From the IMG/VR virus record IMGVR_UViG_3300042504_002519, positions 13,535 through 77,534 of that record: a stretch of DNA of 64,000 bases. The stretch is one strand, 5' to 3'. The translations under genes and the position numbers were made by a program. Within the stretch, counting starts at the first letter, position 1. Every line of letters begins with the position of its first letter. This DNA is from a virus. The notes below the pieces were generated by a model. The model saw only the letters and a list, made by a program, of their open reading frames with translations, made no database searches and was not told the DNA's origin. Below, in pieces: positions 4,447 to 49,748 of this stretch.

Positions 4447-4513
4447 GGCTTTCCTTGTAAGCAAATGGTTTCTCGCTTAGAGCTGGGTTCTTAGTCTTGC
4501 AGGACCAGTCCTA

Positions 4514-5110: not shown

Positions 5111-5210
5111 GGCTCTCTTTGTAAGTGGTTGGCGTGTGGTTGATAGCCAGCGGCTTTTAGTTGGGTTTTAAGGCAAAAACACAAACTTTTAGCCCTGGCC
5201 AGTGGAAGGC

Positions 5211-5450
5211 TTAGCGGGAATTGCGCCAGGCCCGCTCGACTTTGGTCAGCGTGGCCAAGTCTGTTTTGAGCACTGTGACTAACTTTGCCATATCTGCTGG
5301 TGTCATTCTGGGAACAGACAGTCCTTGCTCCCATTTTTGGACAGTGGACACGCTAACACCTAATTGTTGTGCTAGCTCCTCCTGGGTTAGTCCGGAGGCG
5401 ACTCGTAATGTTTTCATGTTTATCTCCGGTAGAGTCATCCCTATTATCAC
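5211..5450 (-). CDS. XRE-family HTH regulator (Cro/CI-like)
   Basis: LRVASGLTQEELAQQLGVSVSTVQKWEQG. Confidence 0.9.
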   Translation of the reverse strand: MIIGMTLPEINMKTLRVASGLTQEELAQQLGVSVSTVQKWEQGLSVPRMTPADMAKLVTVLKTDLATLTKVERAWRNSR

Positions 5451-5538
5451 CTAGATCCTAGGAATAGACTAACACGATCCCTTATAGGGAACGGCGAAAC
5501 TCATAAGGGAAACCTATCAAGAGGATACTAGGAACTAC

Positions 5539-5568
5539 TTGACAGATACCAAGCCCAGGCCCTACTAT
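5539..5568 (+). promoter_or_regulatory. Sigma70-type promoter for the rightward early operon
   Basis: TTGACA-N18-TACTAT, divergent from the XRE gene. Confidence 0.6.
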
Positions 5569-5692
5569 TGAAATATCGACAGCAACCCACAGCCGCTAGC
5601 TAATAGCCGGGTTCTGTCAGTCCAGAGAAAAGGGGTCCGTCGCGCCAACGACTCGCCCCTTCGTTAAATCCACTTACAAAGGATCTTCCCTA

Positions 5693-6022
5693 ATGATACG
5701 CCAAATTTCCGTAACCGTCCTGGCCGCTTCCCTTTCCTTGCTTGCCCTGCCCACCATGCCCTCCGCGACTGCTGTGGCCCTGCGTGGCGACGGCTATTGC
5801 CCACCCGAGCAATACAGCTCGGACCCCGACTGTGTCCCTCGCGGATGGCGGGGCACTGGCCGGATCGGTGACGCTGACGAAGCCTCCAGCCGGGACCGGT
5901 TCCCCGAATGCATGAACGGCGTGTGCCGCAACCGTCAGGCCAGCCTGGTAGCCACGTCCGAGGCTGACAAGCGCAACCAGTTCCCTGGCGGTCGTCCACG
6001 TCAGCCTGAGCACCTAGGCTAG
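5693..6022 (+). CDS. Secreted small protein with RGTGR motif (PatX-like)
   Basis: N-terminal signal-peptide-like stretch, RGTGR at 5849-5863, two Cys pairs. Confidence 0.5.
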   Translation: MIRQISVTVLAASLSLLALPTMPSATAVALRGDGYCPPEQYSSDPDCVPRGWRGTGRIGDADEASSRDRFPECMNGVCRNRQASLVATSEADKRNQFPGGRPRQPEHLG

Positions 6023-6091
6023 ATCCCTGGGGGCTGGCCCTTGCTGGCCCCAACCTGTTCCGCCAACCATCCACACCACTTACAGAGAACC

Positions 6092-6385
6092 ATGGAATAC
6101 ACCAGCACTATCGAACGCTACGAGCCTACAGCACTGGATCTAGTCCAGGAGTCGCCGGTGAGCGACGATCCCCAAGTCAAGCTGTACTCTGCCCAAGTTG
6201 TTTATCCCTCTGGGGAATGGCTAAACCTAGACAATATCCGGGTTATTGCTGGCCCTGGGGAGGCCTTCCTGGCTGCTGAGCTGGCTGGGATTTTTGCCGA
6301 CCAGATCCAGGGTGCCAAGGTCAACACCGTCTGGTGCCCCGCCGACGTCCGGGACCAGGTGTTTGCTGACGACGACGAGTTTTAG
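6092..6385 (+). CDS. Hypothetical acidic protein
   Basis: ORF preceded by the CCACTTACAGAGA leader. Confidence 0.6.
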   Translation: MEYTSTIERYEPTALDLVQESPVSDDPQVKLYSAQVVYPSGEWLNLDNIRVIAGPGEAFLAAELAGIFADQIQGAKVNTVWCPADVRDQVFADDDEF

Positions 6386-6433
6386 TCCACCACGATGGGG
6401 TCTTCGGGCCCCTTAGTCTTTAGGAGAACCACC

Positions 6434-7815: not shown

Positions 7816-7841
7816 CTAGCGAAGCTTTTTTGCTGCCATCT

Positions 7842-14599: not shown

Positions 14600-14989
14600 C
14601 TAGCTCCAATAGACAAGGCCGCTGAGGCCAACGACAGGGATCGCTGGATTAGCTTCACCCACCGGCACCCGATCAACAGCCGTCTGGGCAGAAATAGCAG
14701 GGTCGCCATCAGCGTCAAGCAGGTTGAACTCTTGCAGTAAAGTGCCATCCCGGTTGTATTGATAGGCTTTGCTTTGGCCGTAGTTGATTTGAAATCGCCC
14801 TGTAGTGAAAGCTTGGATCAACGACAGGCTAGTGGCTAGGCTAGCCCCAGTACTGCCTGAGTCGAGATGATCGCTGATGAGCACATCCCAGACAGCACCC
14901 GCAATAGATGCGATACTCTCGGGAGTGAGGCCCCCTTCAGTTGGCCCGAAAAAGCCATCAGTGGCTAGTCGCAAGGGATCTAGGCTCAT
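14600..14989 (-). CDS. Hypothetical virion protein
   Basis: IAGAVWD motif; coupled ORF. Confidence 0.55.
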   Translation of the reverse strand: MSLDPLRLATDGFFGPTEGGLTPESIASIAGAVWDVLISDHLDSGSTGASLATSLSLIQAFTTGRFQINYGQSKAYQYNRDGTLLQEFNLLDADGDPAISAQTAVDRVPVGEANPAIPVVGLSGLVYWS

Positions 14990-15510
14990 GGCTGCCTCGT
15001 GCTAGTGACGGTATTGCCGTCGTTTGTTTCGGCATGGACAATTTGAATGCCACCCTGGCCCAAGGTTTCGGTTACAGCCCCGGTCGTTAGGTTGCGAGTT
15101 CTGGTAACAGGGTTGGTAGTATCAAGCTGTGCCTTCCGCCATAGCTCGTTGAGCCTGGTGTTTTGCTCAGTGGTGAGGCCTGAGGCTGTGGTTAAAGTCC
15201 GGGTGACATAGGCCCAAACAGCAGCGCTAATCTCTGCTTCTGTCGGCAGTAGCTGAATAGCTGCCAGAATGGCGGCATCATCCGGCTTACTGCTAACCAC
15301 ATCAATTCCCAACAACCTTGCTCCAGCATTGGCAAACCAGCGTACCTCGCCGCCTGTATCCGGCAGCTCCACTGCAGCCCGCCAAATGCCATCGCCCAAG
15401 TGGGTGCCATTGGTCAGGTTGCCTAGGGTAGTGCCATCAAATAGGCGATATTGAATGCCCGCTGTGTAACGGGAACCCAGGCTAGCGATGCTGGTGATAG
15501 TTTGGGGCAT
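14986..15510 (-). CDS. Hypothetical virion protein
   Basis: ISAAVWAY..RTLT; N-terminus paralogous to 16747-17181. Confidence 0.55.
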   Translation of the reverse strand: MPQTITSIASLGSRYTAGIQYRLFDGTTLGNLTNGTHLGDGIWRAAVELPDTGGEVRWFANAGARLLGIDVVSSKPDDAAILAAIQLLPTEAEISAAVWAYVTRTLTTASGLTTEQNTRLNELWRKAQLDTTNPVTRTRNLTTGAVTETLGQGGIQIVHAETNDGNTVTSTRQP

Positions 15511-15809
15511 TAGGCGACTCCTATGGCAGTAATAGCGCCATCGGTGCGGGTAATGGTCTTGGTACGCACTACCGCAGGGCTGCGGGTGTAGTCAGTTTCG
15601 GTGATGCTGGTAATAGCGCCATTGGTGCGGGTGATGGCTTTGCGGTACAGCTCCGCCCCGCCATTGCTGACGTAGATGCTAATTTGCGTGATAGCGCCAT
15701 TGGTGCGGGTGATGGTTTTGTAAAACGGTTCAGGCCGCAAGGAGACCAGCGGCAAAATGTTGGTGGTTTCCAGGTTGCCCGAACTGCCGAGCTGGACTGC
15801 CTTAGTCAT
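15510..15809 (-). CDS. Repeat protein (KxITRTxGAIT three times)
   Basis: Three internal repeats. Confidence 0.55.
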   Translation of the reverse strand: MTKAVQLGSSGNLETTNILPLVSLRPEPFYKTITRTNGAITQISIYVSNGGAELYRKAITRTNGAITSITETDYTRSPAVVRTKTITRTDGAITAIGVA

Positions 15810-15813
15810 GGCG

Positions 15814-16335
15814 TTATACCACTGTCAGCGTGATTGGTGGATCATTCTCAAAGACAATTGACGTAGGTGCGATTGCATTGCCAAGCCGCTGCAAGATAAC
15901 GTTCGCGCCAGGGGTAGCAGGGGCGGTAGACGAAAATCCACCCGCAGCAGTAGCACTCAAGAACACTGGGCCAACGGTGGCACCGGTGACAGCGGTATTG
16001 CGCCCAGATAGGTACACCGTGGCATTAGCAGGAGAAGTCACCCCCGTCAGTACATAGCCAATGGCAGGGCGATTGTTGCTTGCATCCGCCTTGCGGGCTT
16101 TGACAGTACCAGTGTCGTCAAAAACGTTTACAAAGTCGCCAGCGGTTAGATTTTCGCTGGTTGGCAGAAGCACTGTTTGAAGCTCAACACCAGGTGGCAG
16201 AAAGGTGGTATCTAGCAGACCCGAGCTATTGGTAGCGATCAGCTTGTTGGCATCGCCTGCCCCAGCACTGCTGCTAGGTGCCTCAGTCAAGGTAGGGGTG
16301 CCGCTTACAACGGTTAAAAACTTTTTCGTCGTCAT
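15814..16335 (-). CDS. DUF2190-like virion decoration/fibre protein
   Basis: ENLTAGDFVNV...RKADA...AIGYV. Confidence 0.55.
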   Translation of the reverse strand: MTTKKFLTVVSGTPTLTEAPSSSAGAGDANKLIATNSSGLLDTTFLPPGVELQTVLLPTSENLTAGDFVNVFDDTGTVKARKADASNNRPAIGYVLTGVTSPANATVYLSGRNTAVTGATVGPVFLSATAAGGFSSTAPATPGANVILQRLGNAIAPTSIVFENDPPITLTVV

Positions 16336-16339
16336 GGGG

Positions 16340-16738
16340 TTAGGCTCCTAAGAATATGGGAGAAGGTGGTTGAAGGTTAATCGTCGTAGCTGAGACTGGC
16401 TGGGCCAGCACTAGCAAAAAGCCCGTGGTGGGTGGCGACTGGGTAAGCTGGCCATTGGTGCCCAGGTAAATGGGGCTGCCACGGGTCCAGTTCCACACAG
16501 CATCGCTAATTTCCCCTAGCCGGTAGGCTACGCCTTCAGCCCCTTGGCTGATCGCATAGGGCAAGATGCCAGCAACTCGGTAGGCATGGCTGGAGGTGCT
16601 GCTGTCTGCATAGGCAAACTGGCCTGCATTGTCGAGGATTACCGCCCTGATGGCCGATAGGTTGATGCTGGCGGTGGCAGTGGTGACCGCATCGCCAAGA
16701 TCGGGGAGTAGTGAAACTGGCAGGTAGACAACGCCCAT
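16340..16738 (-). CDS. DUF2190-like virion protein
   Basis: WNWT.G.PIYLG.NGQLTQ.PP. Confidence 0.55.
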   Translation of the reverse strand: MGVVYLPVSLLPDLGDAVTTATASINLSAIRAVILDNAGQFAYADSSTSSHAYRVAGILPYAISQGAEGVAYRLGEISDAVWNWTRGSPIYLGTNGQLTQSPPTTGFLLVLAQPVSATTINLQPPSPIFLGA

Positions 16739-16746
16739 AGCTCCTC

Positions 16747-17181
16747 CTATAGCACCAATGCGGTAATGTCGTCAGCCTTGGCGTTGAGTGTATCCACACT
16801 CGCCTGGCTAGCCTTGGTGTCCACGCTGGCCTGAGTCGCTAGGCCCGATAGCTGCGTGTCCATATTGGCGCTAGCCAGCCCCAGGGCGGCGCGGATACCT
16901 GCGGCCTGGTCTGCTTGGTTGGGCGCGGGTTCAATCGCTACGGCACTCAGGAACGCCCCTGCCGCTCCTGCATTGTTCAAATACCATTCCAGCGTCCCGC
17001 CATCGTCAGGGGCGCTTATACCGCCATTCACCCGGTAATAGCCAGTAGCAGAAACCTCCGCTACCCCTGTGGTGGTAAAGGCTGTGGCAATGGTCGTGCC
17101 ATCGACCGCACGGATAAGATAACCAACGCTTTGGCTAGCTCGAGTGGGGGCGACAAGGGCGGCGGGGATGACTTGGGTCAT
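16747..17181 (-). CDS. Hypothetical virion protein
   Basis: ATQASVD repeats; coupled ORF. Confidence 0.55.
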   Translation of the reverse strand: MTQVIPAALVAPTRASQSVGYLIRAVDGTTIATAFTTTGVAEVSATGYYRVNGGISAPDDGGTLEWYLNNAGAAGAFLSAVAIEPAPNQADQAAGIRAALGLASANMDTQLSGLATQASVDTKASQASVDTLNAKADDITALVL

Positions 17182-17480
17182 GGCTCATTCTCTGGCCATT
17201 GGGGCATTGGGTGGTGAACTTTAATCGCTTCCAGCAAGGCACAAAAAGCCGTAAAGGGTTGTGTCTGAAATCGCTCGGCAAGTTCAGCAAAACCAGGAAA
17301 TGCCAGGGCAGCTTGATCGGCGGCGTCTAGAGAAGGATAGTTACGTTCAAATCCTTGCTGTAACGGGCCAACAATGGGCGGCTCACCCTCAAAGGTGGCT
17401 ACTCGACGCCAGTAGCTTTGCATAGAGATAGCGCCTGAGGGAATGGCAATGTCAGCCTGAAATCTCGAAAGTTGTTCCAT
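17178..17480 (-). CDS. Hypothetical protein (fibre chaperone-like position)
   Basis: Directly follows a fibre gene. Confidence 0.45.
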   Translation of the reverse strand: MEQLSRFQADIAIPSGAISMQSYWRRVATFEGEPPIVGPLQQGFERNYPSLDAADQAALAFPGFAELAERFQTQPFTAFCALLEAIKVHHPMPQWPENEP

Positions 17481-17482
17481 AG

Positions 17483-18310
17483 TTAAGTTTTCACTTTAAT
17501 AACGTTGCCGTCTCGCCATAGGTCACCGACGGCTATTGAGGCGTCTGAAGTAGGCAAATTAGCAAAATTTATCTTTGAGCCCCCCACGTTTAGGTTTTGA
17601 GCAATACCTACCCCACCGGCTACGGTCATAGCTCCTGTAGTTGTCGAAGTACTTGAAGTGGTAGCGTAGTTAATGAAAGTTGCCGCCGTCATCCTGTAAA
17701 CGAGAGATGTTGAATCCCTGCTAAGAGGGATTAAATACCAATCTGCTGCCATTGCTACACGGTTATTAGGATCCCCTGGAGCTGCTGTAGTCAAGGCAGT
17801 AAAGATCAAAGATGCTCCCCCTCCGCTCCACTCCTCAAATCCCCTAGGGCGTGCAGCAAAAACAAATATCCAATCATCAGCTAGCACCCCGGAAGGATTT
17901 GAGATGCTTCCTCTCGCCCTTCTCCCCTCAAATCCAGTATGCGAGAAATAAAAGTCGCTGTTGTATACCTCAGCCAGAAAACTGTTAAGGGGTCTATTAC
18001 TTTGAGAAAAAAACGGCAATTCAGAGTTTAGAACAGAAATTGCAGTTGTCTGGGGATTTGCAGGGGAAACAGCGACCGACCCCAATCCGCTTAAATTGCC
18101 CCCAGTAATGGCTACCGCATTAGCATTTTGAGCCGACATAGTCCCCAGGGTAGGCGCACCGCTCAGACTGGAATAGGGAAGTAGGGATATTACCCACTTC
18201 CCTAGAGAGCTATTCCAGATTAACGGGTAGCCATTCTGGCCAACCTCAGGGTTCACCGATACGTCGGTCAGTTCCTTGAGTTGCGAGGGGGACAGATACG
18301 CTGTAGGCAC
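17483..18310 (-). CDS. Tail fibre protein
   Basis: LGTMSAQNANAVAITGG, STSTTTGAMTVAGGVGI, NLPTS...GDLWRDG; AT-richer. Confidence 0.7.
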   Translation of the reverse strand: MPTAYLSPSQLKELTDVSVNPEVGQNGYPLIWNSSLGKWVISLLPYSSLSGAPTLGTMSAQNANAVAITGGNLSGLGSVAVSPANPQTTAISVLNSELPFFSQSNRPLNSFLAEVYNSDFYFSHTGFEGRRARGSISNPSGVLADDWIFVFAARPRGFEEWSGGGASLIFTALTTAAPGDPNNRVAMAADWYLIPLSRDSTSLVYRMTAATFINYATTSSTSTTTGAMTVAGGVGIAQNLNVGGSKINFANLPTSDASIAVGDLWRDGNVIKVKT

Positions 18311-33682: not shown

Positions 33683-35059
33683 TTAAGCCACCGGTTTGAT
33701 AGTACGGGTCACGATCTGGCCACTCTCCGCTGCATCGAATGGCGTCCTAGCGTTGCCACCCCGGCCAGCAAAAGACGCGCCGCTGGAGCCTGGGTACGGA
33801 TCAGCGCCGCCTACAGTCGCCCCATTGGATCCTGCGCTTCCATTGACGGTGCCTGGCGTGATAGTTGGCGCAATGAAAACGGCCCATCCGCCGCCCCCGG
33901 CCCTGCCCCCTAGTACACCCGCCGTCACGCTAGCACCACGCTGGCCAGCCGCCCCATCCCCGCCCCTGACATTGATGACGCCTGCATTGGAGATAGAAAT
34001 TAATGAGGATAGGTGGACGATGCCGCCACTGCCGCCAGCGCCAGGCCCGATGCGAAGCCAGGCATTGTTAATGGTTCCTATTGCCGCATTGCCCCCATTG
34101 GCATTGATAATGCCAGCAGCGCCGATGGCGATGGGTCCAGACGCCTCGATAAACAACCCAGCCCCGCCAGCCCCGCCAGCCCCGCCGGTAATAGTAACGC
34201 TTTGTGAAGTGCCTTGAAGGTTGAAGTTAGGCCCACCGCCAGAGCTGCCATAGGGCTGAGCCTCCCACGAATAAACCTGGCCTCGATTGGCGCCGATTCC
34301 TAGCCCTGTCAAGTCATCTCGGTAACCATCGCCGCTGCCAAGAAAGCCTCCTTCGCCATTATTAGGGCCACCCCTGAGAAATACAGATCCGGTGAGCGTT
34401 CCATTGATAGTCACCGCACCTGAGCAATAGATGCGGGTTAGGCCACTACTTAGGGTAACAGTGTGGCCACTATTGACGGTGAAGCTACTAAAGTAGTACA
34501 CCTCTCGATCTAAGGTAATATTGGTCAACCCGCTTGGGTTAGTGCCAGACACCACACCAGTGGCAAAGCTACCATCGCCACCATTGCCGCCGATTAGTTT
34601 AATCGACTCCTGAATAGGCTTTACCTCGAATCGTGGCCTCCGGTCGATTACGGCACTAACGACCGTCGATGTGGTCACCACGCTGGCCAGGACGACACCT
34701 ATCAATGGCACACTGGTACTAGCCGCAACAGCGCCACTATCATTGACAAATACCCAGTTGGTTGTACTAGCTGTGAGGCCAACGCTGCCCGCCGCAATGG
34801 CTTGCCGTGCGCCAGTCGCTAGCGTAACGACGCCAGCGGCATAGTCGGCATTGAGGCCAGTGCCAGCCGTCACCTTCAACTCATCCCTAAAAGCCTGCCA
34901 CTCTGGCAATATCTGGCCAGCGGTGGTACTGAGGTCGGCATTGGTGATCTTAGCGATCTCGCCATCATCGTCAGGCGTATCGACAAAAACCGGGTTGTTG
35001 ATGGCATTTAGGAAGGCAGAGGTAACAACCGTCCCATTTGCAAAAGTAGTCTTAGCCAT
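33683..35059 (-). CDS. Glycine-rich tail fibre
   Basis: KTTF.NGT.VT..FLN N-terminus; GAGGAGG and GGSGG repeats. Confidence 0.75.
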   Translation of the reverse strand: MAKTTFANGTVVTSAFLNAINNPVFVDTPDDDGEIAKITNADLSTTAGQILPEWQAFRDELKVTAGTGLNADYAAGVVTLATGARQAIAAGSVGLTASTTNWVFVNDSGAVAASTSVPLIGVVLASVVTTSTVVSAVIDRRPRFEVKPIQESIKLIGGNGGDGSFATGVVSGTNPSGLTNITLDREVYYFSSFTVNSGHTVTLSSGLTRIYCSGAVTINGTLTGSVFLRGGPNNGEGGFLGSGDGYRDDLTGLGIGANRGQVYSWEAQPYGSSGGGPNFNLQGTSQSVTITGGAGGAGGAGLFIEASGPIAIGAAGIINANGGNAAIGTINNAWLRIGPGAGGSGGIVHLSSLISISNAGVINVRGGDGAAGQRGASVTAGVLGGRAGGGGWAVFIAPTITPGTVNGSAGSNGATVGGADPYPGSSGASFAGRGGNARTPFDAAESGQIVTRTIKPVA

Positions 35060-35067
35060 AGTTCTCC

Positions 35068-35751
35068 TTAGGCGATACGTTGCCAGAATGTTGCATCAGT
35101 CGGCAGGTTGCCTGCGCTCGGGTTAGCGTTGATATAGACATAGCTGCGACTATCGACGGTATAAAAGACCGCGTCATTGTATTGATAGGTGGTGCCAGCC
35201 GCCCAGTTACCTTGCCAGACTGGCCCGCCCCGCAATGCAGCGGCATAGGTGCTATCACTGGCCAGCAAGGCCGCCACCCTGCGTACTGCTGTATCTAGTA
35301 CATCGGTTGTTAGGCCAGTCGGCACCAATTCACTCCAGTTGACGGTATTGACATTGGGCACGATGGCCCGAAAGTCGCTGATCGTCTCCTCGGTGATCGT
35401 CGAATTGCGGGTTAGCTCCTCCGAGTCGCTGCTATGCAACTCGCCGGTGTAATATTTGTTGTCGGTGTGCAGATGAACCGGCCCATCATAGGGTTCGCCG
35501 TTCAAGAAGAAATAGTTGAATGTCGTTGTCTCAGTAAATAGCTCAAAGCGATAGGTAGTATTACTGGTGGCTGACTCTGGAATGGTGATGCTAAGCGCCC
35601 CGCTGGTGATGGTGAAGGTTTTGGGCTGCTCAGTATAGGTGGTATGGGGGTTGGTGCTAGTCACGTTGATCGGGCTATCGAGGGTCACCCGTAGCTTAGC
35701 GGTGAGGGTATCACCGCCAGAATTGCGCAAAGTAGCCTGGATGATCGTCAT
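35068..35751 (-). CDS. Tail/baseplate-associated protein
   Basis: C-terminal W.G.W..GTTY...D.V carbohydrate-binding-like motif. Confidence 0.55.
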   Translation of the reverse strand: MTIIQATLRNSGGDTLTAKLRVTLDSPINVTSTNPHTTYTEQPKTFTITSGALSITIPESATSNTTYRFELFTETTTFNYFFLNGEPYDGPVHLHTDNKYYTGELHSSDSEELTRNSTITEETISDFRAIVPNVNTVNWSELVPTGLTTDVLDTAVRRVAALLASDSTYAAALRGGPVWQGNWAAGTTYQYNDAVFYTVDSRSYVYINANPSAGNLPTDATFWQRIA

Positions 35752-35765
35752 GCCTATAGGGTGCC

Positions 35766-36371
35766 CTAGCTAAAAATTGGCGTGTCAAAGACCGGATCCC
35801 CGGCAACCGAAAAGCCTGCGTAGAATTGTTGGTAGCAAACCTGGCTGGTGACATAGACCGGGCTATAAAGCTGGTTCAGCCGTTCTAATAATGCCCACTG
35901 GGATCCATTGCGGGCATAGATTAGCTTCACCCTTAGGAAATATTCAAACCCGCTATCACTGCCTAGGGTATCGCCAGCGGCGCTATAGCCAGCCAGGAAG
36001 TCGCCTAGAACATAAACCCGCATCTCTAGCCCAAATAGGGCGATGATCCACTCTAGCAAGGCCCTGGAGCCCTTCTCCGGCCACACTCGGCTAAAGGCTT
36101 CAGTGATCAACGTGCGCTTCACCGATACTGGCCACTCCGTATCCCAGTAGGCGCCGGTATAGCCCGATAGCTGGGCTAGCCAGTCCAGGTTAGCCGCATT
36201 AGCCGTGGCTGGGTTCAGGTGGGTGGCGTAAAAGTTCTGTGCCAGCCCTCGGCTATTGGCTAGCAGTTCATCCCAGGGCAACGTCAGCCAGTCGGCAGCA
36301 TCATTGCCTTGGTACTGCTGCGACTCCTCTGGCAGTCGTCCATAGATCGGTCGGTTAGTCGCCCAGCCCAT
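35766..36371 (-). CDS. Baseplate wedge/tail protein I
   Basis: LNP.TA...LDWLAQ..G...KGS. Confidence 0.75.
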   Translation of the reverse strand: MGWATNRPIYGRLPEESQQYQGNDAADWLTLPWDELLANSRGLAQNFYATHLNPATANAANLDWLAQLSGYTGAYWDTEWPVSVKRTLITEAFSRVWPEKGSRALLEWIIALFGLEMRVYVLGDFLAGYSAAGDTLGSDSGFEYFLRVKLIYARNGSQWALLERLNQLYSPVYVTSQVCYQQFYAGFSVAGDPVFDTPIFS

Positions 36372-37546
36372 TAGTCCGGATCCCCCTGGCCGTAGCTATA
36401 GCTGAACAGGTTAGCGCCATCGACTAGCTCCACCACCAGGTCAATTAGGCTGCCAGCTGAATACCGATAGGGTAAAGCTAGGTTAGTGGCTAGCTGGCTT
36501 TGGCCCACAATGCCCATAATCACTGACTGCACCGATTCCACGCCAGACAACCGCACCAGGTATTCAAGTTCCTTCACCAGGATGGTTTCTCCTAGCTCCA
36601 GGTTGCCAGGCGTTAGGTAGGCATCAAGCCTGGCATGAATGTCATCCGCTAGCGTCTCTGGGTTTTGGCCGCTGGGCAGCTTCGCTACCACCCGTACCGT
36701 CACATCCTGCACATCCACATTCGACGCATAGACCGCAATGGTGACATGGCTCTTGGCGGCTAGTGCGGCTTGGACGTCGGCCAGCTGGGCGGTACTGAGC
36801 AGTTCACCGCCAGGGTTCAAGCAAAATACATGAACACTTCCAGCCCTGGTGGTTACTTTGTCAGCGGCCAGGTTGCCGATGGCCTTGGCGACCGATCCAT
36901 TACCCAGTAGGGCCCGGGTTTCTTCCTGGTAGTCGTCCGCACTGACCAGGCCACGCCGACGAATTGCGGCAAAGGCCCGAGCCTTGGTTTGGTCCACCGT
37001 CTCGCCATCGGTGCCACCGGTTGCCGCTTCAGTATTGGTGACAGAACCAAGGAATGATAGGGGCTGGCTAAGCCGGGTGATCGTATAGGCGCCCACATTG
37101 TAAGTACTACCCACCGCTGTCGCTGTTGCCGCCACGGTGCCTGCGATGTTGCCAGGGCTGATCACCAAGCTGGCGTTGGTGGTAAAGGAAAGGCCTCCGG
37201 TAGTCGATACTTCATAGCCCGCTGGCACCGTATAGCTGGTGCTAAGGACAGCGGTCAGGGTAAAGGTAAGGGTAACCGAGGCGCTGGTGCCTAGGATCTG
37301 CTGGATGCCTGCAATTTGTAGGTAGGCAATAGCCATCGCCTCTGGCAATTGGTTCAGGTAGTACAATAGCTCAGCGCCAGCAAAGGCCTGCCCTTCGATC
37401 AAGGCCCGGGCTGGCGAACTAGGCGCAAAGCTATTGATCGCCCCACCACTAGCCACAAATACTCGATCCAAGGCATACTCGACTAGCGTCGCCTCCGTCC
37501 TTGGATCCAGGCTAGGGATGACCAGGGGTGTTATCTGTGTTGCCAT
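36371..37546 (-). CDS. Baseplate J protein
   Basis: LDPR, VTNTEAATGGTDGET, VSADDY. Confidence 0.9.
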   Translation of the reverse strand: MATQITPLVIPSLDPRTEATLVEYALDRVFVASGGAINSFAPSSPARALIEGQAFAGAELLYYLNQLPEAMAIAYLQIAGIQQILGTSASVTLTFTLTAVLSTSYTVPAGYEVSTTGGLSFTTNASLVISPGNIAGTVAATATAVGSTYNVGAYTITRLSQPLSFLGSVTNTEAATGGTDGETVDQTKARAFAAIRRRGLVSADDYQEETRALLGNGSVAKAIGNLAADKVTTRAGSVHVFCLNPGGELLSTAQLADVQAALAAKSHVTIAVYASNVDVQDVTVRVVAKLPSGQNPETLADDIHARLDAYLTPGNLELGETILVKELEYLVRLSGVESVQSVIMGIVGQSQLATNLALPYRYSAGSLIDLVVELVDGANLFSYSYGQGDPD

Positions 37547-37896
37547 TAGATCACCAGTCGATATTGGATAGCAGGCTGGGGCAGGCTAGCTAGCTGCCAG
37601 TTGATCGTCAGCAGGTAGCTGCCATCTTCATTAACCTGGCCCAGCACCTCGAAGGTAGCGTCTGTGATCTGTAGCTCCAGCGCTTGCCGGATCCGCTCCG
37701 CCACTACGCTAGGGTTAGGATGGGCCTCAAAGGCAAGGTTGCTGGTGCCATACTGGGGGCGCATGATACGCTCAAATGGCCTGGTTTCCAACACAGACAA
37801 GATGCTGTCTCGCACCAGATCAGCATCAGTCGCCGTCGCTAGGCCACCATCAACGATCCGTAACGGGTAGGCAAGGTCTCTGAGGATTGCAGTCAT
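37546..37896 (-). CDS. Baseplate wedge gp25/GPW
   Basis: LETRPFERIMRPQYG. Confidence 0.85.
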   Translation of the reverse strand: MTAILRDLAYPLRIVDGGLATATDADLVRDSILSVLETRPFERIMRPQYGTSNLAFEAHPNPSVVAERIRQALELQITDATFEVLGQVNEDGSYLLTINWQLASLPQPAIQYRLVI

Positions 37897-37943
37897 GGTT
37901 ATAGTGTGCCCTGGGCATCCTGGATCCAGCATTATGGTGACCC

Positions 37944-38183
37944 ATGCTTATCCCCATCGGCCAGCCCATCGACTTTCGCGCCAAACTACCCGCCAATCCG
38001 ACCCGGGCCCAGCTGCGCAGCGTCGCCCAGATGATCATTGCCGCCAACTTTCCTGGCCCTGTGCAGGTGGAGGGTGTTCAGGTGTCTGGCGGCAAGGCTT
38101 CTGGTGAATTTATGGGCGATGGAGAGCGCTACAGCTACGAAATTACCGATGGAGCCCTCACCTACGACCCTATTGACCGCTAG
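37944..38183 (+). CDS. Stand-alone copy of the N-domain of 26255-27073
   Basis: KLPANPT...V.GG.A.G.F.G.G...Y.I..G...Y.P shared. Confidence 0.65.
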   Translation: MLIPIGQPIDFRAKLPANPTRAQLRSVAQMIIAANFPGPVQVEGVQVSGGKASGEFMGDGERYSYEITDGALTYDPIDR

Positions 38184-38817
38184 AGACCAGCGGATGGCCA
38201 GCGCTATCGACTGCGCCGACGACAGCTACCTCTTTGCTGCCGATCTTTACCTTACCGGTGCAGGTGAGGGTGATATTGCCGCTAGCGTCGATGACGATCT
38301 TGCCGCCATCCCCTTCAATGGTTAGCACCTGGGCGCTGACGATGGTGATGTCATCCCCGGCCTCCACCTCGATAGCCTCGCCAGCTGTCACCGTCCACCC
38401 GGCTCCCACATTCCAGACGATGCCCTTGTCTACCTCCAGGGTGCTATCACCAGGGATGCGCCGCCAGTCATCATTCAATGGATCCGCCTTGGCGTAGGGT
38501 GGGTTCACCGAATTAACCATGACGCCGTCATAGACTGGATCATGGGGGTTGCCATCAAAGTTTTGCAGCGTCAAGGCCATGCCTACCCTGGGGACGGGTG
38601 GATCCCAGTATGGACAGGGTAGAGAGCGCATGGCATAGTCATGGCTGGTGAGGGCCGCCTTATCGGCGGTGGTGGTCCGCACCCGACGCAAGGCCAGCGG
38701 GTCATCAACGTCAGTCGTCGTCGCAAACAGGGCGGAGTCTTTGCGGCCCTCCAGGTCACCGGCTAACGAGTGCAGCTTATCCAGCCCGGCCAGGGCGGCT
38801 AATAATGGGCTATCCAT
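38170..38817 (-). CDS. Baseplate spike (gpV-like)
   Basis: DP..L.RVR, P.VG, DG.PH.P, beta-helix repeats. Confidence 0.75.
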   Translation of the reverse strand: MDSPLLAALAGLDKLHSLAGDLEGRKDSALFATTTDVDDPLALRRVRTTTADKAALTSHDYAMRSLPCPYWDPPVPRVGMALTLQNFDGNPHDPVYDGVMVNSVNPPYAKADPLNDDWRRIPGDSTLEVDKGIVWNVGAGWTVTAGEAIEVEAGDDITIVSAQVLTIEGDGGKIVIDASGNITLTCTGKVKIGSKEVAVVGAVDSAGHPLVSSGQ

Positions 38818-41165
38818 CAGTATTTCATCCCAGAACGCTTACTACCACCAATGCCCGTATAAACTACCCCTAGCTCAGAGGGTGGCACGACCTTGCCGCC
38901 AGGGGGGATGCCGCCACTTCTAAATTCAAAGTGCAGGTGAGCCCCAAACGAACGCCCCGTATTGCCAACGGTGCCGGTTGTCGAGCCTTGCTTAACGGTC
39001 TGTCCTTCTCTGACGTAGGTGAGGGTCAGGTGGGCCACCAGGGAATAAATGCCGCCCCCATGGCGGATGACGATGTAGTTTCCCCACCCACCACCACAAC
39101 TTTGATTGCCAACCCGGCATCCACGGACCACCCGGACAACAACACCATCAGCAGGGGCGATGACCGGGGTATTGGTTGGCGCAGCGATGTCGATGCCATT
39201 ATGGTTGCGGCCAGCCCAGGCCCGGTAACCAATGCCTTCGCCAAAGGTACCACTGCGGATCGGGCAGATGAACCCACCCGGCTTTAGGTCCGCCTGACTG
39301 GCGGTGCCATCCTCCATCAGGGCAGTGCCATCCATGCCACCCCCGATGCCACCAGCGCCGCCTGCTGTCGCCTGGGGTGGGCGTTGCCGTTGGGGGCTAT
39401 ACAGTTCAACGTCTGTCGTAAATGGGCTGCCTACCTGCCAGCTATGGCTGACCGATCCGACTCGCCATTCCCTCGCAAAGACAGTCGGCACGATCTCGCT
39501 GTCAATGGACACGATAGAACCTGGGGCTAGGATCAACGACTCCGGGCTAGTGAATAGGCTGGCCCGCGACTCATAGCCCTTCACCCGTCTGCTTTCGTCC
39601 TTGATCACCTCCGCCTCCGCCCGGCCGTCCGCCAGGTCGATAGCGCCTACCTTCTGGGTGGGTAGGCCCGTCTCGGTGCCATCCAGGACGGTGCCAGTCA
39701 CCGGGGGCTTAGCCGCACCGGTCACCGCTGACTCAGGGGGCTTACTGGCGGTACTGGTGGCCGTAGAGTCTTCCTTGGTGATCGCCTCCGGTTGGCCCGT
39801 ATCCCGGTTTAGGGTCGTCTTTTGCTCAGCGGCATTGACCGCTGGGGTGCTGGCTGGGGCATTGCTATTGACCGGCATATCTTTGGTGGCCCTATCGCCA
39901 AAGGCTAGCCCGCCTGGCTTCAGATAGTCCTTGGTGATCACAAAGCCAGTAAAGTTGGGCCGTAATGGGGTCAGCTTAAGGGTACTGCCACGGTCAGTCA
40001 CCCGATAGCCAATGGCCTGGGCTTCCCTTAGCAATAGTTCATAGTCGGTGATGCCGGTCTGGTCCAGGTGCTGGTAGGTGGGCCCGTTGCCTTCCATCTC
40101 CAAGGTTAGGCCATAGCGCTGACATACCTTAGTGGCCAGATCCCTTAGTGTCAGGTTGCTATAGGCTGTATTCAGCTTGCGTCGGGTCATCAGCCAGCGG
40201 ATCGACTGGCCTTCAAATACTGTCTGATCAACACCACGCCCGGTCGTACTGGTGCCAGTGTGGATGAAGTGATACTCCACCGTCTGGGATGGGCTGAAGC
40301 CCAGGCTAACGATGATCTCCTGGCCTTTCTGGCTAACCTCGGCGGCAGCCTCCTGGGCCTTATCCTGTACTGGCGTTGTACTGGTCGCCGTTGCGGCGCT
40401 GCTGGCCGCCGGGGCCTGGGTGGGAGCGGCTGAGCCACCGCCTCGATACTTGGCTAGGGCCTTCTCCCATACCTCTCGCATTTTGGACAAGCTTTTCTCC
40501 GGCTGGTCATAGCCTGCCCCTGGAAAGCTAGCCCATTCCTGCCTGCACTTGGTGACCGCTGCATCAAAGCGCCCGGCCCGTACATCCTGAAGGGCCCCCC
40601 GACCACGGATCAGCTTAATAGCACCCCGGTCCTGGCTGGCTGGAGTAAAGTCCGGCATATTCAGGCCATCCCAGGTCTTTTTTAGAAACTGATACCGGCC
40701 AGCAGCGTCAGAGCATAGGGTGCGGCTAGCGTTGCAATTGATCTGGGCTGGGTGGCGCTCGAAGCCATCAAATAGCTTGCCGGTGAACATGGTGCGGTAG
40801 CCATTGGGGCCACTGGTGCCCTCCGCCCAGGCGATTACATCCAAAAATGCTTTTTCTTCTGCCGTCAGCTCCCCCGCCGTCACCGATGACTCACCCCCAC
40901 TGGCCACGGTGCCCCCAGGGGTAGCAGGCGTCTGTTGTGGGTCTTCGAGTAGGTCGCTAGGTACTTCGATGCCACCAGCGGTAAAGCTCATCTCAAAGAA
41001 GGCAGCGGCTATCTTGAGGCCTGGATCGCTTACCTCGAAGCGACAATTGCTAGCCCGCTTGTCTTCGCCCAGGCTAATGGCTACATAGCGCAGCTTGCCA
41101 TCACCTGTCTGGAATAGGCGATCACCGATCTTTACTTTGGCAAAGGGGGCAAGCAGTCGAACCAT
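38817..41165 (-). CDS. Baseplate hub (gpD-like) with lambda-type lysozyme and M23 peptidase domains
   Basis: AEGT...AAGRYQF...TW...EWASFPG; QTGITDYELL; HNGIDIA...HLHFE. Confidence 0.85.
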   Translation of the reverse strand: MVRLLAPFAKVKIGDRLFQTGDGKLRYVAISLGEDKRASNCRFEVSDPGLKIAAAFFEMSFTAGGIEVPSDLLEDPQQTPATPGGTVASGGESSVTAGELTAEEKAFLDVIAWAEGTSGPNGYRTMFTGKLFDGFERHPAQINCNASRTLCSDAAGRYQFLKKTWDGLNMPDFTPASQDRGAIKLIRGRGALQDVRAGRFDAAVTKCRQEWASFPGAGYDQPEKSLSKMREVWEKALAKYRGGGSAAPTQAPAASSAATATSTTPVQDKAQEAAAEVSQKGQEIIVSLGFSPSQTVEYHFIHTGTSTTGRGVDQTVFEGQSIRWLMTRRKLNTAYSNLTLRDLATKVCQRYGLTLEMEGNGPTYQHLDQTGITDYELLLREAQAIGYRVTDRGSTLKLTPLRPNFTGFVITKDYLKPGGLAFGDRATKDMPVNSNAPASTPAVNAAEQKTTLNRDTGQPEAITKEDSTATSTASKPPESAVTGAAKPPVTGTVLDGTETGLPTQKVGAIDLADGRAEAEVIKDESRRVKGYESRASLFTSPESLILAPGSIVSIDSEIVPTVFAREWRVGSVSHSWQVGSPFTTDVELYSPQRQRPPQATAGGAGGIGGGMDGTALMEDGTASQADLKPGGFICPIRSGTFGEGIGYRAWAGRNHNGIDIAAPTNTPVIAPADGVVVRVVRGCRVGNQSCGGGWGNYIVIRHGGGIYSLVAHLTLTYVREGQTVKQGSTTGTVGNTGRSFGAHLHFEFRSGGIPPGGKVVPPSELGVVYTGIGGSKRSGMKY

Positions 41166-41195
41166 GGCAGGCTAGCGTTTCCTTTAGGTTGCCCA

Positions 41196-41642
41196 TCACA
41201 CCTTCCTGGCCTCCTGCAGGCTATCAGTCCCCTGGGTGGGGCTTTTATCCAGCAGCCAGTCTACCAGCTGGGCCCGGCCCGACTCGATGGCCTGGACGCC
41301 TTGATCTAGTAGCTGGTTCAGGGGCCCTTCGATGTCGCCCACGATGCCATTAATGTCTGCCGCCTGGCGGATCACTTCAGGGATGTAGCTTTGCAGCTGG
41401 GCGGTAGCGCTGGCGATGGTGGCACTGACGCCAGTGCGGATCGACTGTAGGGCCGGTTCCAGCGTAGTGGCTAGCTCCTCCTGGCTGGGCACTAGCAAGG
41501 CCAACTGGGGCGATAGGGTCGCCAATGGGTTGAGGCCACCATTCTGATCGGCAATGTCCCTAAACCGAGACGGATCCCCTAGCACCCGACTGGCAAAGCT
41601 AGCCAAGTCCTCGCCTGGCAATGGCTCGATCAATGCTGGCAT
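41196..41642 (-). CDS. Tail protein X/LysM-like
   Basis: GEDL...A...LGDP..F..IA..N. Confidence 0.6.
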   Translation of the reverse strand: MPALIEPLPGEDLASFASRVLGDPSRFRDIADQNGGLNPLATLSPQLALLVPSQEELATTLEPALQSIRTGVSATIASATAQLQSYIPEVIRQAADINGIVGDIEGPLNQLLDQGVQAIESGRAQLVDWLLDKSPTQGTDSLQEARKV

Positions 41643-41812
41643 GACTTGCCCCGCCTGCGCTCTGGATCCCAGATGATCGTACAGTCCTTGAGTGCGTAGT
41701 TATACCACGCGCCATCCGGGCCATGGATGATCAGCCGCTGTCCCTGGATCTGGGCAAGGCCCCGTACAGCCGTGCCATCGGTCTTGGTGACAATTGCCTG
41801 TCTTGGTACCAT

Positions 41813-42565
41813 TTAGTTCACCCCTGGATAGGTCCATCGAGCCCGGTAGCCCCGGCCATCAATATGCACAAACCCCTGGCCCCGGGCTAGCCCGCCTCGA
41901 CTAGCCCACCATGGATCCAAACGATTATACACATTCACCAACGATACACCAGGGATGTGAAAGTCCACGGCATCGCCAACCATATGCCGACTCTGGCTGG
42001 CACCGCCTATCCTGCGGTTAGTCACCGGATCCCGATACCAGGAGTTAACCACGACTGGTGCGCCGCCGAATAGGCCACGAACATTCTGCATCACCTCAGC
42101 GATCTTGATAATTTTGTAGACCACATCCGGGTTAGCAGGTTGCCGGTAGCTGCCAGCGCTATCGACATGGAGCGCTTCACCCCAGGTAAAGCTCTGGCTT
42201 TTTAGGCCAATTGAGTCGGTGCTGTAGTAGTTGCCATTGAACCCTGGCAGGACGATGCCATAGCCTTTGGCGGTATCGCTGGGGGTATCCTTGGGGTCAT
42301 TATCCACGCCATGGCCCTGGGGATCCATGCAATGCTGGGCGTAGACCCACCAGGTATTTTTGCGGGATGGGTGCAGGGTGGCCAGGTTGAAGCCTGTGGC
42401 ATCGACGGTGAAGCAAATGTGGCCATGCTCATGGCGATAGGCAAGGATCGGTAGCACCGTACCCCGGATTACCTTGGCTACATCCTCAATGGGAAAGCTG
42501 GCCGCTGGCTCATGGCTAGGCTTCAGGTAGGTATCGACGGTAATGGTGATGGTGGGGCGTTCCAT
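41813..42565 (-). CDS. Endolysin, peptidase M15A
   Basis: SWYR...N..IGGA..SRH..GDAVD...FVHID. Confidence 0.85.
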   Translation of the reverse strand: MERPTITITVDTYLKPSHEPAASFPIEDVAKVIRGTVLPILAYRHEHGHICFTVDATGFNLATLHPSRKNTWWVYAQHCMDPQGHGVDNDPKDTPSDTAKGYGIVLPGFNGNYYSTDSIGLKSQSFTWGEALHVDSAGSYRQPANPDVVYKIIKIAEVMQNVRGLFGGAPVVVNSWYRDPVTNRRIGGASQSRHMVGDAVDFHIPGVSLVNVYNRLDPWWASRGGLARGQGFVHIDGRGYRARWTYPGVN

Positions 42566-42854
42566 AGCATCTCCTGGGTGATATAGCCTCGTCGGCCACT
42601 ACCAGAACGCCTGCGGCCTGCATCCTGGATCCAAACGGCAGCAATGACGATAGTTAGTAGCAGGGCGATAGTACGCATGGCTGGACCGGGCTAGCTAGCT
42701 ATAGGGTGCCCAGCCGGTTGACAGCCACTAGCCTACGGTTTATAGTTGGGTTGTGCCCTGCACACGAACTCCTAACTCTCTGCCCTCAGCACCTTGGGAA
42801 AATGCTGGGGGTTTTTTATTGACTGGGCACCCTAGGGTTAGCGCTAGGCAGCCT

Positions 42855-43913
42855 ATGCTAATCAAAATTGACAACCCTATCCTTGGCTTCATAGACTTTA
42901 AGTCGGCCAAAGGTGGCAGCAAAAAGTGCGTTAAGGGCAAAGTGTGTGGCCTCACCTGCATCGCTAAAAGCCGGGTGTGTCGGATCGAGCTGAAAGGGGC
43001 CAATAAGGCAGCCAGCAAATGGCTGGTCAGCCAAAATACTTCGACAGATGACGGCCCACCAACAATGAAAGGCCGCATCGAACGAGGCATCGAGCTATAT
43101 CGGGAAGAGTTGAAGGCGATTGATCTGGCCATGGCTGAACAACAATCAGCCCGGGCCAACGCATGGGTTCTATACGATCAGGCAGTAGCAGAAATTAAAG
43201 CCTTTCGGGCGCAGAACCCGGATCTGCCGATCCCGCGACCACTCCTCAGCAGCCTAGCCAATGCGTCGAAAGAACAACAACGGCTTGATCGTATTGCCAA
43301 CAACTCTGAAGTGGACAAAGCCTTCGGTGCATTGCGAGGCAAGATGCTCGCCAACGGTGATATTGCCGCGGCGACAGATAAGGTTGGCCGCATATCAATA
43401 GATGCTGACCTTCCCGCCGTCAAGATCAGCAACCAAAGCGTGGAGGATGAGCTCAAGGATCTGCATAGAATTAGCAGCAACCGTGTCGAGCGACTAAACA
43501 AAGTATGGCAGGATCCAGACCGCGAACGGGCCTACGCCGACGATGAAGGCATTATCAATGTAGGCAAGGTAGACGATCTAGTTAATCCTCGAGCACTATG
43601 GCATGAGTTCGGCCATCACATAGAGTTTGAGGATGACAACGTCAAGGCGGCGGCTAACGACTTCATTCAGCAACGCCGAGATGGGTCTCCGCCGCAGAGG
43701 CTAAACGAGCTAGCTCCAGGATCGAACTACAACGACGACGAAATGGCCTATCCTGGCCGATTCATCGATCCTTATATGGGCAAGGTGTATGATGATGGAG
43801 GCACCGAGGTGATTTCCATGGGGCTCGAAGGATTCCGATCCGTTGAAGCCATGCGGAAGCTATACAGAGACGATCCAGAACTCTTTACCTTCATGCTGGG
43901 AGTGTTGTCATGA
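42855..43913 (+). CDS. Cys4-motif protein with C-terminal HExxH zincin-like domain
   Basis: DFK...CVKGKVCGLTCIAKSRVC; WHEFGHHIE; Y.GKVY...TEVISMG. Confidence 0.7.
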   Translation: MLIKIDNPILGFIDFKSAKGGSKKCVKGKVCGLTCIAKSRVCRIELKGANKAASKWLVSQNTSTDDGPPTMKGRIERGIELYREELKAIDLAMAEQQSARANAWVLYDQAVAEIKAFRAQNPDLPIPRPLLSSLANASKEQQRLDRIANNSEVDKAFGALRGKMLANGDIAAATDKVGRISIDADLPAVKISNQSVEDELKDLHRISSNRVERLNKVWQDPDRERAYADDEGIINVGKVDDLVNPRALWHEFGHHIEFEDDNVKAAANDFIQQRRDGSPPQRLNELAPGSNYNDDEMAYPGRFIDPYMGKVYDDGGTEVISMGLEGFRSVEAMRKLYRDDPELFTFMLGVLS

Positions 43914-44197
43914 ACTGGCGCTATCGACTCGACATTTACGATGTAGTAGTTTCGCTGGAAGCTGTTAGCCCCAACACGCCTGCTCTAGTCGCCTACGAGG
44001 GGGACGCGGATGGCATCGATGTCGTCAAATGGAACCTGAGCAATGCCTATGGGGCCTTTGGCCATAGCTTTGACCCCGAGTCAACCACCGCCACCGACCT
44101 CGACTATGCCCTATTCAGCACATTTCCCGGCGATGTCACCCGACTGACGGCTGCACCATCCTATGATCCAGGCATCCCCCAGGGTGCCGTCACCTAG
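43910..44197 (+). CDS. Small acidic partner (immunity-like)
   Basis: ATGA overlap with the zincin gene; YGAFGH motif. Confidence 0.5.
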   Translation: MNWRYRLDIYDVVVSLEAVSPNTPALVAYEGDADGIDVVKWNLSNAYGAFGHSFDPESTTATDLDYALFSTFPGDVTRLTAAPSYDPGIPQGAVT

Positions 44198-45009
44198 CGC
44201 TTCGGAATATTCGTTATACCTGGCGTCCTGAAGGCTTGCCCATCCCAGCGGCCAACGATACCCACCAGGTTGCGGGTCCCATCGTACATCCGCACATCAC
44301 CTGAGTCTGGATCCGTCGATAGGAAGTACTGGCCAGACTGGATCAAGGCCGTCACCCTCGGGATATAGAGCCCCGACTGGGCCTGGAGGTGTGCCTTACC
44401 CCTGGCACTACCCTCAGCCCGTTGTCGCTCCGTCAGGGGCAGCCTAGGCCGTCCATCGGTGTTAGGGGTAGGCGTAGCTGTCGTTGCCTGCTGACCCCGG
44501 TCTATGGCGCTGCTAGGCACCTCTAGCAGCTCGATGTCAACCTGCACCCTAGCCGACTGGCCACCCGCCAGCCAGCCCACCTCGGTCACCGATAGGCTAG
44601 TCAGCACACAGGGCGCTAGGACCACCCGCTGAGCCATCACCAGCGACAAGACAGGTGGGTTATAGGTTTGCTCGCTCAGCTTCGCCTCAGTCAGCGCAGA
44701 GAGGCCATCCACCAGGGGCTGGACTGTCTTACCCAGCCACCATGCATCGAGCAACACCCCAGGCAGGCGTAGGCTACGGCCAGAGGTGTACTGGTACTGC
44801 TGGATCGGGGTCTTGGTGGCATAGGTAGCCCCTTCGGCATAGGTGGCCCGGCGCTCCCAGGTGATCTGGGTTGGGTTATAAAGAAAGTTCCATAGCCTAG
44901 CGGTCTGGGCATTGGCGGCGCTGGCATATTCGAGTAGGAAGCATTCCACCTGAGTGCCATGGGTATGTTCGCCCCCTGGCAGCCCGTCCATTACATTTTG
45001 GTTCCACAT
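44194..45009 (-). CDS. Tail tube initiator/CIS tube-like protein
   Basis: FLYNP..I...R.A.Y, PPVL...PCVLTSL. Confidence 0.7.
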   Translation of the reverse strand: MWNQNVMDGLPGGEHTHGTQVECFLLEYASAANAQTARLWNFLYNPTQITWERRATYAEGATYATKTPIQQYQYTSGRSLRLPGVLLDAWWLGKTVQPLVDGLSALTEAKLSEQTYNPPVLSLVMAQRVVLAPCVLTSLSVTEVGWLAGGQSARVQVDIELLEVPSSAIDRGQQATTATPTPNTDGRPRLPLTERQRAEGSARGKAHLQAQSGLYIPRVTALIQSGQYFLSTDPDSGDVRMYDGTRNLVGIVGRWDGQAFRTPGITNIPKR

Positions 45010-45017
45010 AGCGCCCC

Positions 45018-48167: not shown

Positions 48168-48206
48168 GGCAGTACGTCAGGGTTACTGCTCTTAGTGTGC
48201 CCAGGC

Positions 48207-49700: not shown

Positions 49701-49748
49701 AGCAGCTTGGGATAGACTGCTTTTAGTGTGCCCAGCCATGGATCCAGG

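Follow-up and report, generated by a model that had tools for sequence, protein, structure and literature searches.

A mosaic family of small, probably exported cyanophage proteins with an optional [WY]RG[ST]GR hexapeptide

In the well-studied bacterial patterning system of HetR, PatS, PatX and HetN, RG(S/T)GR peptides act as the diffusible inhibitors, and our search of the literature found no published description of a virus-encoded carrier of such a peptide. A stretch of viral DNA of 64,000 nucleotides (hereafter the window; bases 13535-77534 of the 77.5-kb IMG/VR virus record IMGVR_UViG_3300042504_002519) contains a small gene whose product includes the string VPRGWRGTGR. An original prediction, made from the letters of the window, proposed that this gene encodes a PatX/PatS-like secreted peptide by which a phage mimics a developmental signal of its host, or which passes between cells as a signal about lysis versus lysogeny. 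The locus raises the question of whether the motif is a selected feature of a genuine phage protein or a chance string and, if it is selected, whether HetR is its likely target.

The gene, its predicted product and its control region

The open reading frame at 5693-6022 starts with ATG and encodes a protein of 109 aa, which reads MIRQISVTVLAASLSLLALPTMPSATAVALRGDGYC...VPRGWRGTGRIGD... and carries VPRGWRGTGR at residues 48-57, with WRGTGR at residues 52-57. The GC content of its codon positions shows the pattern of the secure genes of this phage. Two antisense ORFs covering the same region (5664-6074 and 5690-6013) were dropped, as their identity across loci is lower and their codon-position GC does not fit. 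At the N-terminus of the 109-aa protein, a single basic residue is followed by a hydrophobic stretch of 15 residues, the hydropathy scan gave a mean Kyte-Doolittle value of 2.2 for an N-terminal window of 12 residues, and small-x-small sites (ATA, AVA) are located 1-3 residues ahead of the invariant GDG core. When 47 family members were scanned for hydropathy and small-x-small sites, the same layout was present in every full-length member. Thus, the ORF, its signal-peptide-like N-terminus and its motif are as originally described, the N-terminal layout holds family-wide, and the gene product is probably a small, exported protein, judging from its sequence.

Searches of Pfam, PHROG and NCBIfam with the 109-aa protein returned zero matches, and atlas look-ups with this protein and with the sigma factor of the phage were uninformative. 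An AlphaFold2 model based on an alignment of 30 sequences had a mean pLDDT of 55 and a pTM of 0.14, secondary structure was absent, and pLDDT fell below 50 over residues 54-62, i.e., in the region of the motif. This low-confidence model, built on a shallow alignment, would fit a flexible precursor.

The coordinates of the features at this locus, and of two further regions of the window which are discussed below, are compiled in Table 1. In group A, the lineage to which the window's phage belongs, a promoter diverges from an XRE-type regulator gene, and the gene is the first ORF downstream of that promoter, in agreement with the original prediction. The regulator matched HTH_3 (PF01381, 4.6e-12) and HTH_31 (PF13560, 1.4e-12) in Pfam, and copies with 59-61% identity occupy the same place in three related phage records (L002, L003, L008). 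Direct (5445-5464/5515-5534) and inverted (5447-5461/5528-5542) repeats were found between regulator gene and promoter. This segment (5451-5538) varies between the window and eight relatives, but promoter and leader do not; both promoter hexamers are identical in nine aligned relatives.

Table 1. Features of the locus and of two phage modules in the window.
Feature	Position	Strand	Remarks
XRE-type helix-turn-helix regulator	5211..5450	-	79 aa; divergent from the 5693-6022 gene
Divergent control region, XRE side of promoter	5451..5538	.	imperfect repeats, may be operators
Sigma-70-like promoter TTGACA-18-TACTAT	5539..5568	+	predicted; 10/12 consensus positions
5′ leader	5576..5692	+	~115 nt; nearly invariant in 9 aligned loci
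Gene for predicted exported-protein precursor	5693..6022	+	109 aa
Predicted signal-peptide-like N-terminus	5693..5779	+	aa 1 to ~27-29; likely cleavage after ATA/AVA
Invariant loop GDGxCPx6DPDC	5786..5833	+	aa 32-47, C36 and C47; invariant columns in 30 sequences
Hexapeptide WRGTGR	5846..5863	+	aa 52-57; optional module of the family
C-terminal tail DKRNQFPGGRPRQPEHLG	5966..6019	+	aa 92-109; conserved
GC-rich 9-bp hairpin without U-run	6030..6051	+	directly past the stop codon
Next gene of the rightward transcript	6092..6385	+	97 aa; preceded by the leader box
Tail-fibre region	14600..18310	-	84-96% aa and 84-90% nt identity to G005
Contractile-tail and baseplate module	33683..49739	-	matches cyanophages

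The leader is better conserved than the gene downstream of it. It ends with a box, CCACTTACAAAG (5670-5681), located 11 nt ahead of the ATG; the window has eight copies of this leader box against an expectation of 0.68, all of them 4-12 nt upstream of a start codon. Sites of the box CCACTTACARAG are at window positions 1231, 3615, 5117, 5670, 6076, 19984, 52038 and 62697, often downstream of TTGACA-N17/18-TATAnT promoters, and the combination of promoter and leader box was also seen on a phage-like contig (G001:C4). Two hairpins are predicted in the leader (about 5578-5618 and 5630-5661), its fold has a free energy of -34.1 kcal/mol (z of -2.55; 2 of 200 shuffled sequences were as good), and a credible match to 5576-5692 was absent from Rfam. 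The leader may be a cis-acting RNA, e.g., an antitermination or processing element.

Copies of the next gene of the transcript (6092-6385) are 67-70% identical and syntenic in the same three related phage records; Pfam and PHROG matches were absent for this neighbor as well as for 6434-6907. In an ORF of 126 aa further downstream (7089-7469), a unit of about 57 aa is repeated in tandem almost perfectly (MNLPADPTR.E.LAYLLAYSAYWRGELESAMDAANVPSSSINAIQGDLSAALFAE, twice).

A mosaic family and its optional hexapeptide

Homologs of the 109-aa protein were collected by a word-index search, which gave 22 homologous clusters, by an HMM search of 1.84 billion representative proteins, which gave 13 members of 65-123 aa, and by scans of viral and metagenome sequences, which gave 16 further loci. 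The family consists of approximately 30 clusters, all of 65-124 aa, which derive only from lake metagenomes and viral contigs; a homolog in a host genome was not found. Its alignment shows a constant order of modules, namely the signal-peptide-like N-terminus, the invariant loop GDGxCPx6DPDC, which is of disulfide type, a middle cassette, a SRDxFPxC…C module and a tail. The middle cassette is either [WY]RG[ST]GR with an acidic linker or a short xL[SN]KS stretch, and the SRDxFPxC…C module exists in at least three versions within the family. The usual tail is DKRNQFP..RPRQPxHLG, in which P98 is invariant and R94, Q96, P102, Q104, H107, L108 and G109 are conserved to at least 90% in the family alignment; in some members it is swapped for another (…GGGSGPALPAPRAV). 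Since each module has alternative forms, the family is strongly mosaic. What all members share is GDGxCPx6DPDC and the Cys pairs, and not the motif. Diverged alleles were found to co-occur in the same lake samples, in runs represented as short contigs whose depth is uninterpretable. We describe the family as small, phage-only and heavily mosaic.

Two phage lineages contain the family: group A and a second lineage, group B (L004-L007, G004, G005). Comparing window 1-12000 with four group-B sequences (L004-L007), the family gene is the only gene common to all of them. The group-B copy has a predicted promoter of its own (TTGACC…TATACT) and an equivalent 3′ hairpin, here followed by a T-run and predicted to act as a terminator; its gene context is unrelated to that of group A, and a regulator is absent beside it. 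Morons have an autonomous promoter and terminator, are dispensable for the phage cycle and occur in unrelated phage backgrounds, and the promoter and terminator of the group-B copy argue for a moron-like cassette which has moved between lineages. The best explanation of these findings is that the ORF together with its 3′ hairpin forms a mobile, recombining cassette of temperate lake cyanophages, shared by at least two of their lineages.

When the 64-kb window is translated in all six frames, the pentapeptide RGTGR (nt 5849-5863) is the sole RG[ST]GR, with approximately 1.1 occurrences expected by chance; the expectation for a protein with the composition of the 109-aa product is 0.0015. One isolated RG[ST]GR is unremarkable, and it is the conservation of the motif which beats chance. 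The pentapeptide emerged from the screening of very many windows, which leaves a real chance of coincidence. In the family, [WY]RG[ST]GR is present in 20 and absent from 10 of the 30 cluster representatives (90% clusters), and 34 of 47 distinct sequences have the hexapeptide, leaving 13 without. Although the pairwise identity of the 20 carriers goes down to 28%, with 15 positions invariant in all of them, R53, G54, G56 and R57 are four of these 15; position 55 is always S or T and position 52 always W or Y. In the family alignment, the hexapeptide is retained with either of two junctions ahead of it (CVPRG-W or CAREGAQ-W/Y) and with many different linkers after it. Further, in the shortest forms of the protein the indel is exactly the hexapeptide (AQ-WRGTGR-EQAS vs. 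AQ-QLNKS). Its retention across junctions and linkers, together with this indel, argues that the motif is a selected optional module rather than a chance string. On the other hand, the hexapeptide is missing from a third of the cluster representatives, from the syntenic copies in L002, L003 and L008 and from several group-A metagenome contigs, and it therefore does not constitute the family's core function. The conservation among homologs on which the original prediction depended was therefore recovered in part, namely as an invariant motif, varying between S and T only and placed after an aromatic residue, in the 20 carriers, but not across the family as a whole.

The virus and its host

Metagenomes of lake water from at least 24 studies contain the analyzed stretch. 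The record has genes for a terminase, a Mu-like portal and a contractile tail, and for recombinases of the large serine and the tyrosine type. The tail sheath (48207-49739) matched 23 of 50,697 phage records, 15 of which are cyanophages. Its best match was Leptolyngbya phage Lbo402-yong5 (42% identity, E of 4e-67), followed by Nostoc, Dolichospermum and Anabaena phages and the S-TIM5 group, and 12 ORFs of the tail and baseplate module match Lbo402-yong5 at 27-42% amino acid identity. The tail-fibre region has its counterpart in the group-B genome G005, which contains 174 GCGATCGC (HIP1) sites in 92.5 kb; group-B genomes have 143-174 such sites each (approximately 1,880 per Mb, observed/expected about 83). 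This density is in the range for cyanobacteria outside the picocyanobacteria (Elhai, 2015; PMC4390886). Because its tail module resembles that of Lbo402-yong5 and its tail fibres are common with the HIP1-rich group B, we conclude from these matches that the record is a cyanophage; the gene is thus phage-encoded, as had been proposed. The close similarity of the fibres further indicates that modules were exchanged recently between groups A and B, cyanophage lineages which are otherwise unrelated, and since these host-recognition genes are shared, the two groups most likely meet in the same host.

Several other observations were made on these genomes. The serine recombinase (31482-32789) is 72-73% identical between group A and G004/G005, and a phosphoesterase (7908-8768) is 89% identical to that of G004. 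Type I-E-like cas6e, cas7e and cas5e genes (TIGR01907, TIGR01869, TIGR01868), repeat arrays with a CCCAC…GTGGG hairpin and a tyrosine recombinase are found on L017 (record bases 1-13600) and at window positions 8800-9340. A SigF-like sigma factor of 196 aa is truncated and misses region 4. The Cys motif K.C.KG..CG..CI…R.C recurs in three otherwise different proteins (24767-26065, 26255-27073, 42753-43913) and may represent a shared module for zinc binding or anchoring.

The palindrome content of the two lineages differs. CGATCG was absent from the lineage of the window's phage, with 0 sites in about 137 kb (window, L017, L002, L003 and L008) vs. approximately 42 expected, and GAATTC, ACGCGT, ACATGT, TACGTA and TTTAAA are also absent from it. 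This lineage has iterated palindromes of its own, TGGATCCA (28 sites, observed/expected 25) and CTGGCCAG (26 sites, observed/expected 14). The pattern is reversed in the sister lineage (G004, G005), which is HIP1-rich and in which GGATCC is almost absent; Lbo402-yong5 likewise has 0 CGATCG in 49 kb. As a distribution of sites, this looks like restriction avoidance against methylation-linked palindromes.

In a species-genome collection (185,579 genomes), the sole match was a 2.8-kb contig binned in a ‘Limisphaerales’ MAG (G001; L001, L009-L016), which holds several small phage contigs. Over 900 kb, this MAG contains only 29 HIP1 sites, more than half of which (16) fall on a single phage-like contig of 7 kb, and the capsid protein gave zero matches in 301 genomes of the MAG's phylum. 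Limisphaerales was consequently rejected as host: the MAG overall is not HIP1-rich, and the contig is read as a binning contaminant. With small cyanophage contigs in a Limisphaerales bin, inferring the host from the bin would be wrong. Matches of terminase, portal and endolysin among phage records were widespread or Mu-like and contained no pointer to a host, the serine recombinase gave nothing useful among plasmids, and the group-B capsid had zero matches among phages. Weak hints of a cyanobacterial host come from Cas7e, whose best plasmid match is from Acaryochloris (33.5%, marginally above Streptomyces), and from the sigma factor, which scored highest against PRK07408 (SigF). Xu et al. (Table S3; PMC12756182) list HetR for high-GC thin filamentous forms such as Prochlorothrix and Halomicronema, and no HetR for Synechococcus elongatus, Cyanobium or Pseudanabaena biceps. 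HIP1-rich cyanobacteria of about 55% GC include unicellular forms lacking hetR, e.g., Synechococcus elongatus. Neither HetR nor a PatP-like peptidase was found on the phage records.

Readings of the hexapeptide and comparison with known systems

The explanation we prefer is that motif-bearing alleles act in a PatX-like manner, to which we assign a probability of roughly one in three, most of its weight resting on the identity of the host. A motif-bearing allele would deliver an exported, largely unstructured small protein to the host periplasm, where host proteases (PatP-type or others) would release the RG[ST]GR peptide. After uptake, the peptide would bind the hood domain of HetR, like PatX-6 (HRGTGR), and HetR-dependent differentiation or fragmentation would be damped in the infected filament and in neighboring cells. 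In this chain, we infer export, processing, uptake, HetR as the target and a filamentous, hetR-bearing host. The invariance of the hexapeptide in 20 of 20 carriers, at pairwise identities down to 28%, counts for PatX-like action; what variation there is, between S and T at position 3 and between aromatic residues at -1, matches the natural RG(S/T)GR definition and the format of PatX-6. The signal-peptide-like N-terminus, which parallels the Sec signal of PatX, the low-confidence model devoid of secondary structure and the cyanophage nature of the carrier also speak for it. Several points count against it. The motif is internal, so that release would take two cleavages; homology to PatX is lacking and a third of the family is motif-less; the phages carry neither a PatP-like peptidase nor HetR; and hetR-less forms exist among the HIP1-rich cyanobacteria of about 55% GC. 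Further, mosaic alleles which co-occur resemble an arms-race gene rather than the carrier of a ligand for a fixed host target. The fuller claim, that the optional module is a convergent, non-homologous hexapeptide of PatX-6 type by which an infected cell or a lysogen would inhibit HetR in itself and in its neighbors, is a tentative one.

The main rival is a periplasmic exclusion-type moron which would serve in phage-phage or phage-host conflict, by superinfection exclusion or receptor masking, with a loop target other than HetR. The protein would then bind a component of the envelope, and [WY]RG[ST]GR would be one of several interchangeable binding loops. Exclusion genes of temperate phages typically sit beside the regulator, and the group-A gene directly adjoins the XRE regulator, while the group-B copy is a stand-alone transcription unit with promoter, hairpin and T-run. 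The signal peptide, the core, the middle and the tail each come in more than one version, alleles share lake samples, the motif is dispensable in a third of the members, and the cassette passed between two lineages which also swap tail fibres, all of which speaks for a moron. However, known exclusion proteins in Pfam, NCBIfam and PHROG have no similarity to the family, a structure-free, low-confidence AlphaFold2 model would be unusual for a receptor-masking protein, and the occurrence of exactly the HetR-inhibitor pentapeptide as an optional loop, with an S/T change only, is left unexplained. We rate this rival only slightly below PatX-like action. Some other role in the periplasm or thylakoid lumen, e.g., metal binding or envelope modification via the Cys loop with RG[ST]GR as a structural or processing element, would agree with the fact that GDGxCPx6DPDC and the Cys pairs rather than the motif are universal, and the atlas neighbors (weak, 0.77) are small secreted Cys proteins. 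We consider such a role improbable, as positive evidence for it is lacking and the AlphaFold2 model contains no confident fold.

The lysis-lysogeny part of the original prediction fared worst. An arbitrium-like peptide exchanged between phages, either the RG[ST]GR hexapeptide or the C-terminal RPRQPxHLG, would be cut from the exported precursor and taken up again, and a regulator of the phage would then sense it and set lysis vs. lysogeny. The gene is indeed the first behind a promoter divergent from the XRE regulator, its product combines a signal-peptide-like N-terminus with a short conserved C-terminal tail, and its alleles differ where the versions of XRE and operator differ. An arbitrium-type receptor was not seen among the neighbors, though; a candidate of AimR type is absent nearby, the sole HTH protein being the 79-aa XRE regulator. 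The group-B gene is located elsewhere with a regulator absent beside it, and some members have the tail swapped for an unrelated one. To our knowledge, there are no arbitrium-like systems in Gram-negative hosts. We hold this explanation to be very improbable.

Should PatX-like action of the motif-bearing alleles be true, this would be a virus hijacking a bacterial morphogen through the shared periplasm of a filamentous host. If the protein acts on HetR, alleles with and without the hexapeptide at one locus would be natural paired controls, and they would offer a handle on the role of HetR in non-heterocystous filamentous cyanobacteria. If it does not act on HetR, the gene is still a clear case of a fast-shuffling, predicted-exported moron crossing two cyanophage lineages.

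Among the known systems to which the locus can be compared, exclusion proteins differ from the phage protein in that it has no similarity to known ones and neither a membrane anchor nor a lipobox. Its gene nevertheless resembles morons and superinfection-exclusion genes by its own promoter and terminator in group B, its place beside the regulator in group A, its horizontal movement between phage lineages and its rapid diversification. With AimP it has in common that it is a phage-encoded, small, predicted-secreted precursor adjoining a lysis-lysogeny control region, and the hexapeptide would be a possible active unit. AimP of the Bacillus SPbeta-like phages has about 40 aa, a C-terminal active peptide and the receptor AimR; in contrast, no receptor was seen here, and the hosts are Gram-negative cyanobacteria. 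HetN and PatS of heterocyst-forming cyanobacteria both carry the same pentapeptide, which in HetN is internal (PMC7761841), as it is in the phage protein. Neither of the two is homologous to the phage protein, and HetN is dehydrogenase-like. According to Xu et al., synthesis and cleavage of both PatS and HetN probably take place in the cytoplasm (PMC12756182).

PatX is Asl2332 of Nostoc/Anabaena PCC 7120 (NF047413; Elhai and Khudyakov, 2018; Xu et al., 2025, PMC12756182), a small Sec-exported precursor for which export is required (PMC12756182). PatX occurs in filamentous cyanobacteria which contain hetR, and its gene is commonly linked to hetR. The peptidase responsible for its maturation is PatP, a periplasmic enzyme widespread in cyanobacteria, and the hexapeptide PatX-6 (HRGTGR) binds HetR with a Kd of 88 nM and blocks its DNA binding (PMC12756182). 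NF047413 gave zero matches at E<=10 against 22 family members, and zero again, at the same threshold, in a six-frame search of five phage records. The phage precursor is longer (109 aa vs. about 50-80 aa), and its motif is internal with 52 residues after it, whereas the PatX motif lies near the C-terminus. The phage family has an invariant Cys loop and four cysteines, which PatX does not; its gene is viral, is not beside hetR, and misses the motif in a third of the family. The likeness to PatX consists in a small precursor whose N-terminus, in the phage protein, is predicted to be a Sec-type signal, a proline-containing, apparently unstructured body, and RG(S/T)GR after a ring-bearing residue (H in PatX, W/Y in the phage protein); the phage protein, too, would need export and proteolysis for activity. 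Thus, of the proposed PatX/PatS-like peptide, the PatX-6-shaped hexapeptide stands, while the NF047413 search and the internal position of the motif set it apart from PatX; overall, the observation behind the original prediction is confirmed and its interpretation partly supported. If the phage protein works like PatX, its sequence would point to convergence, not gene capture.
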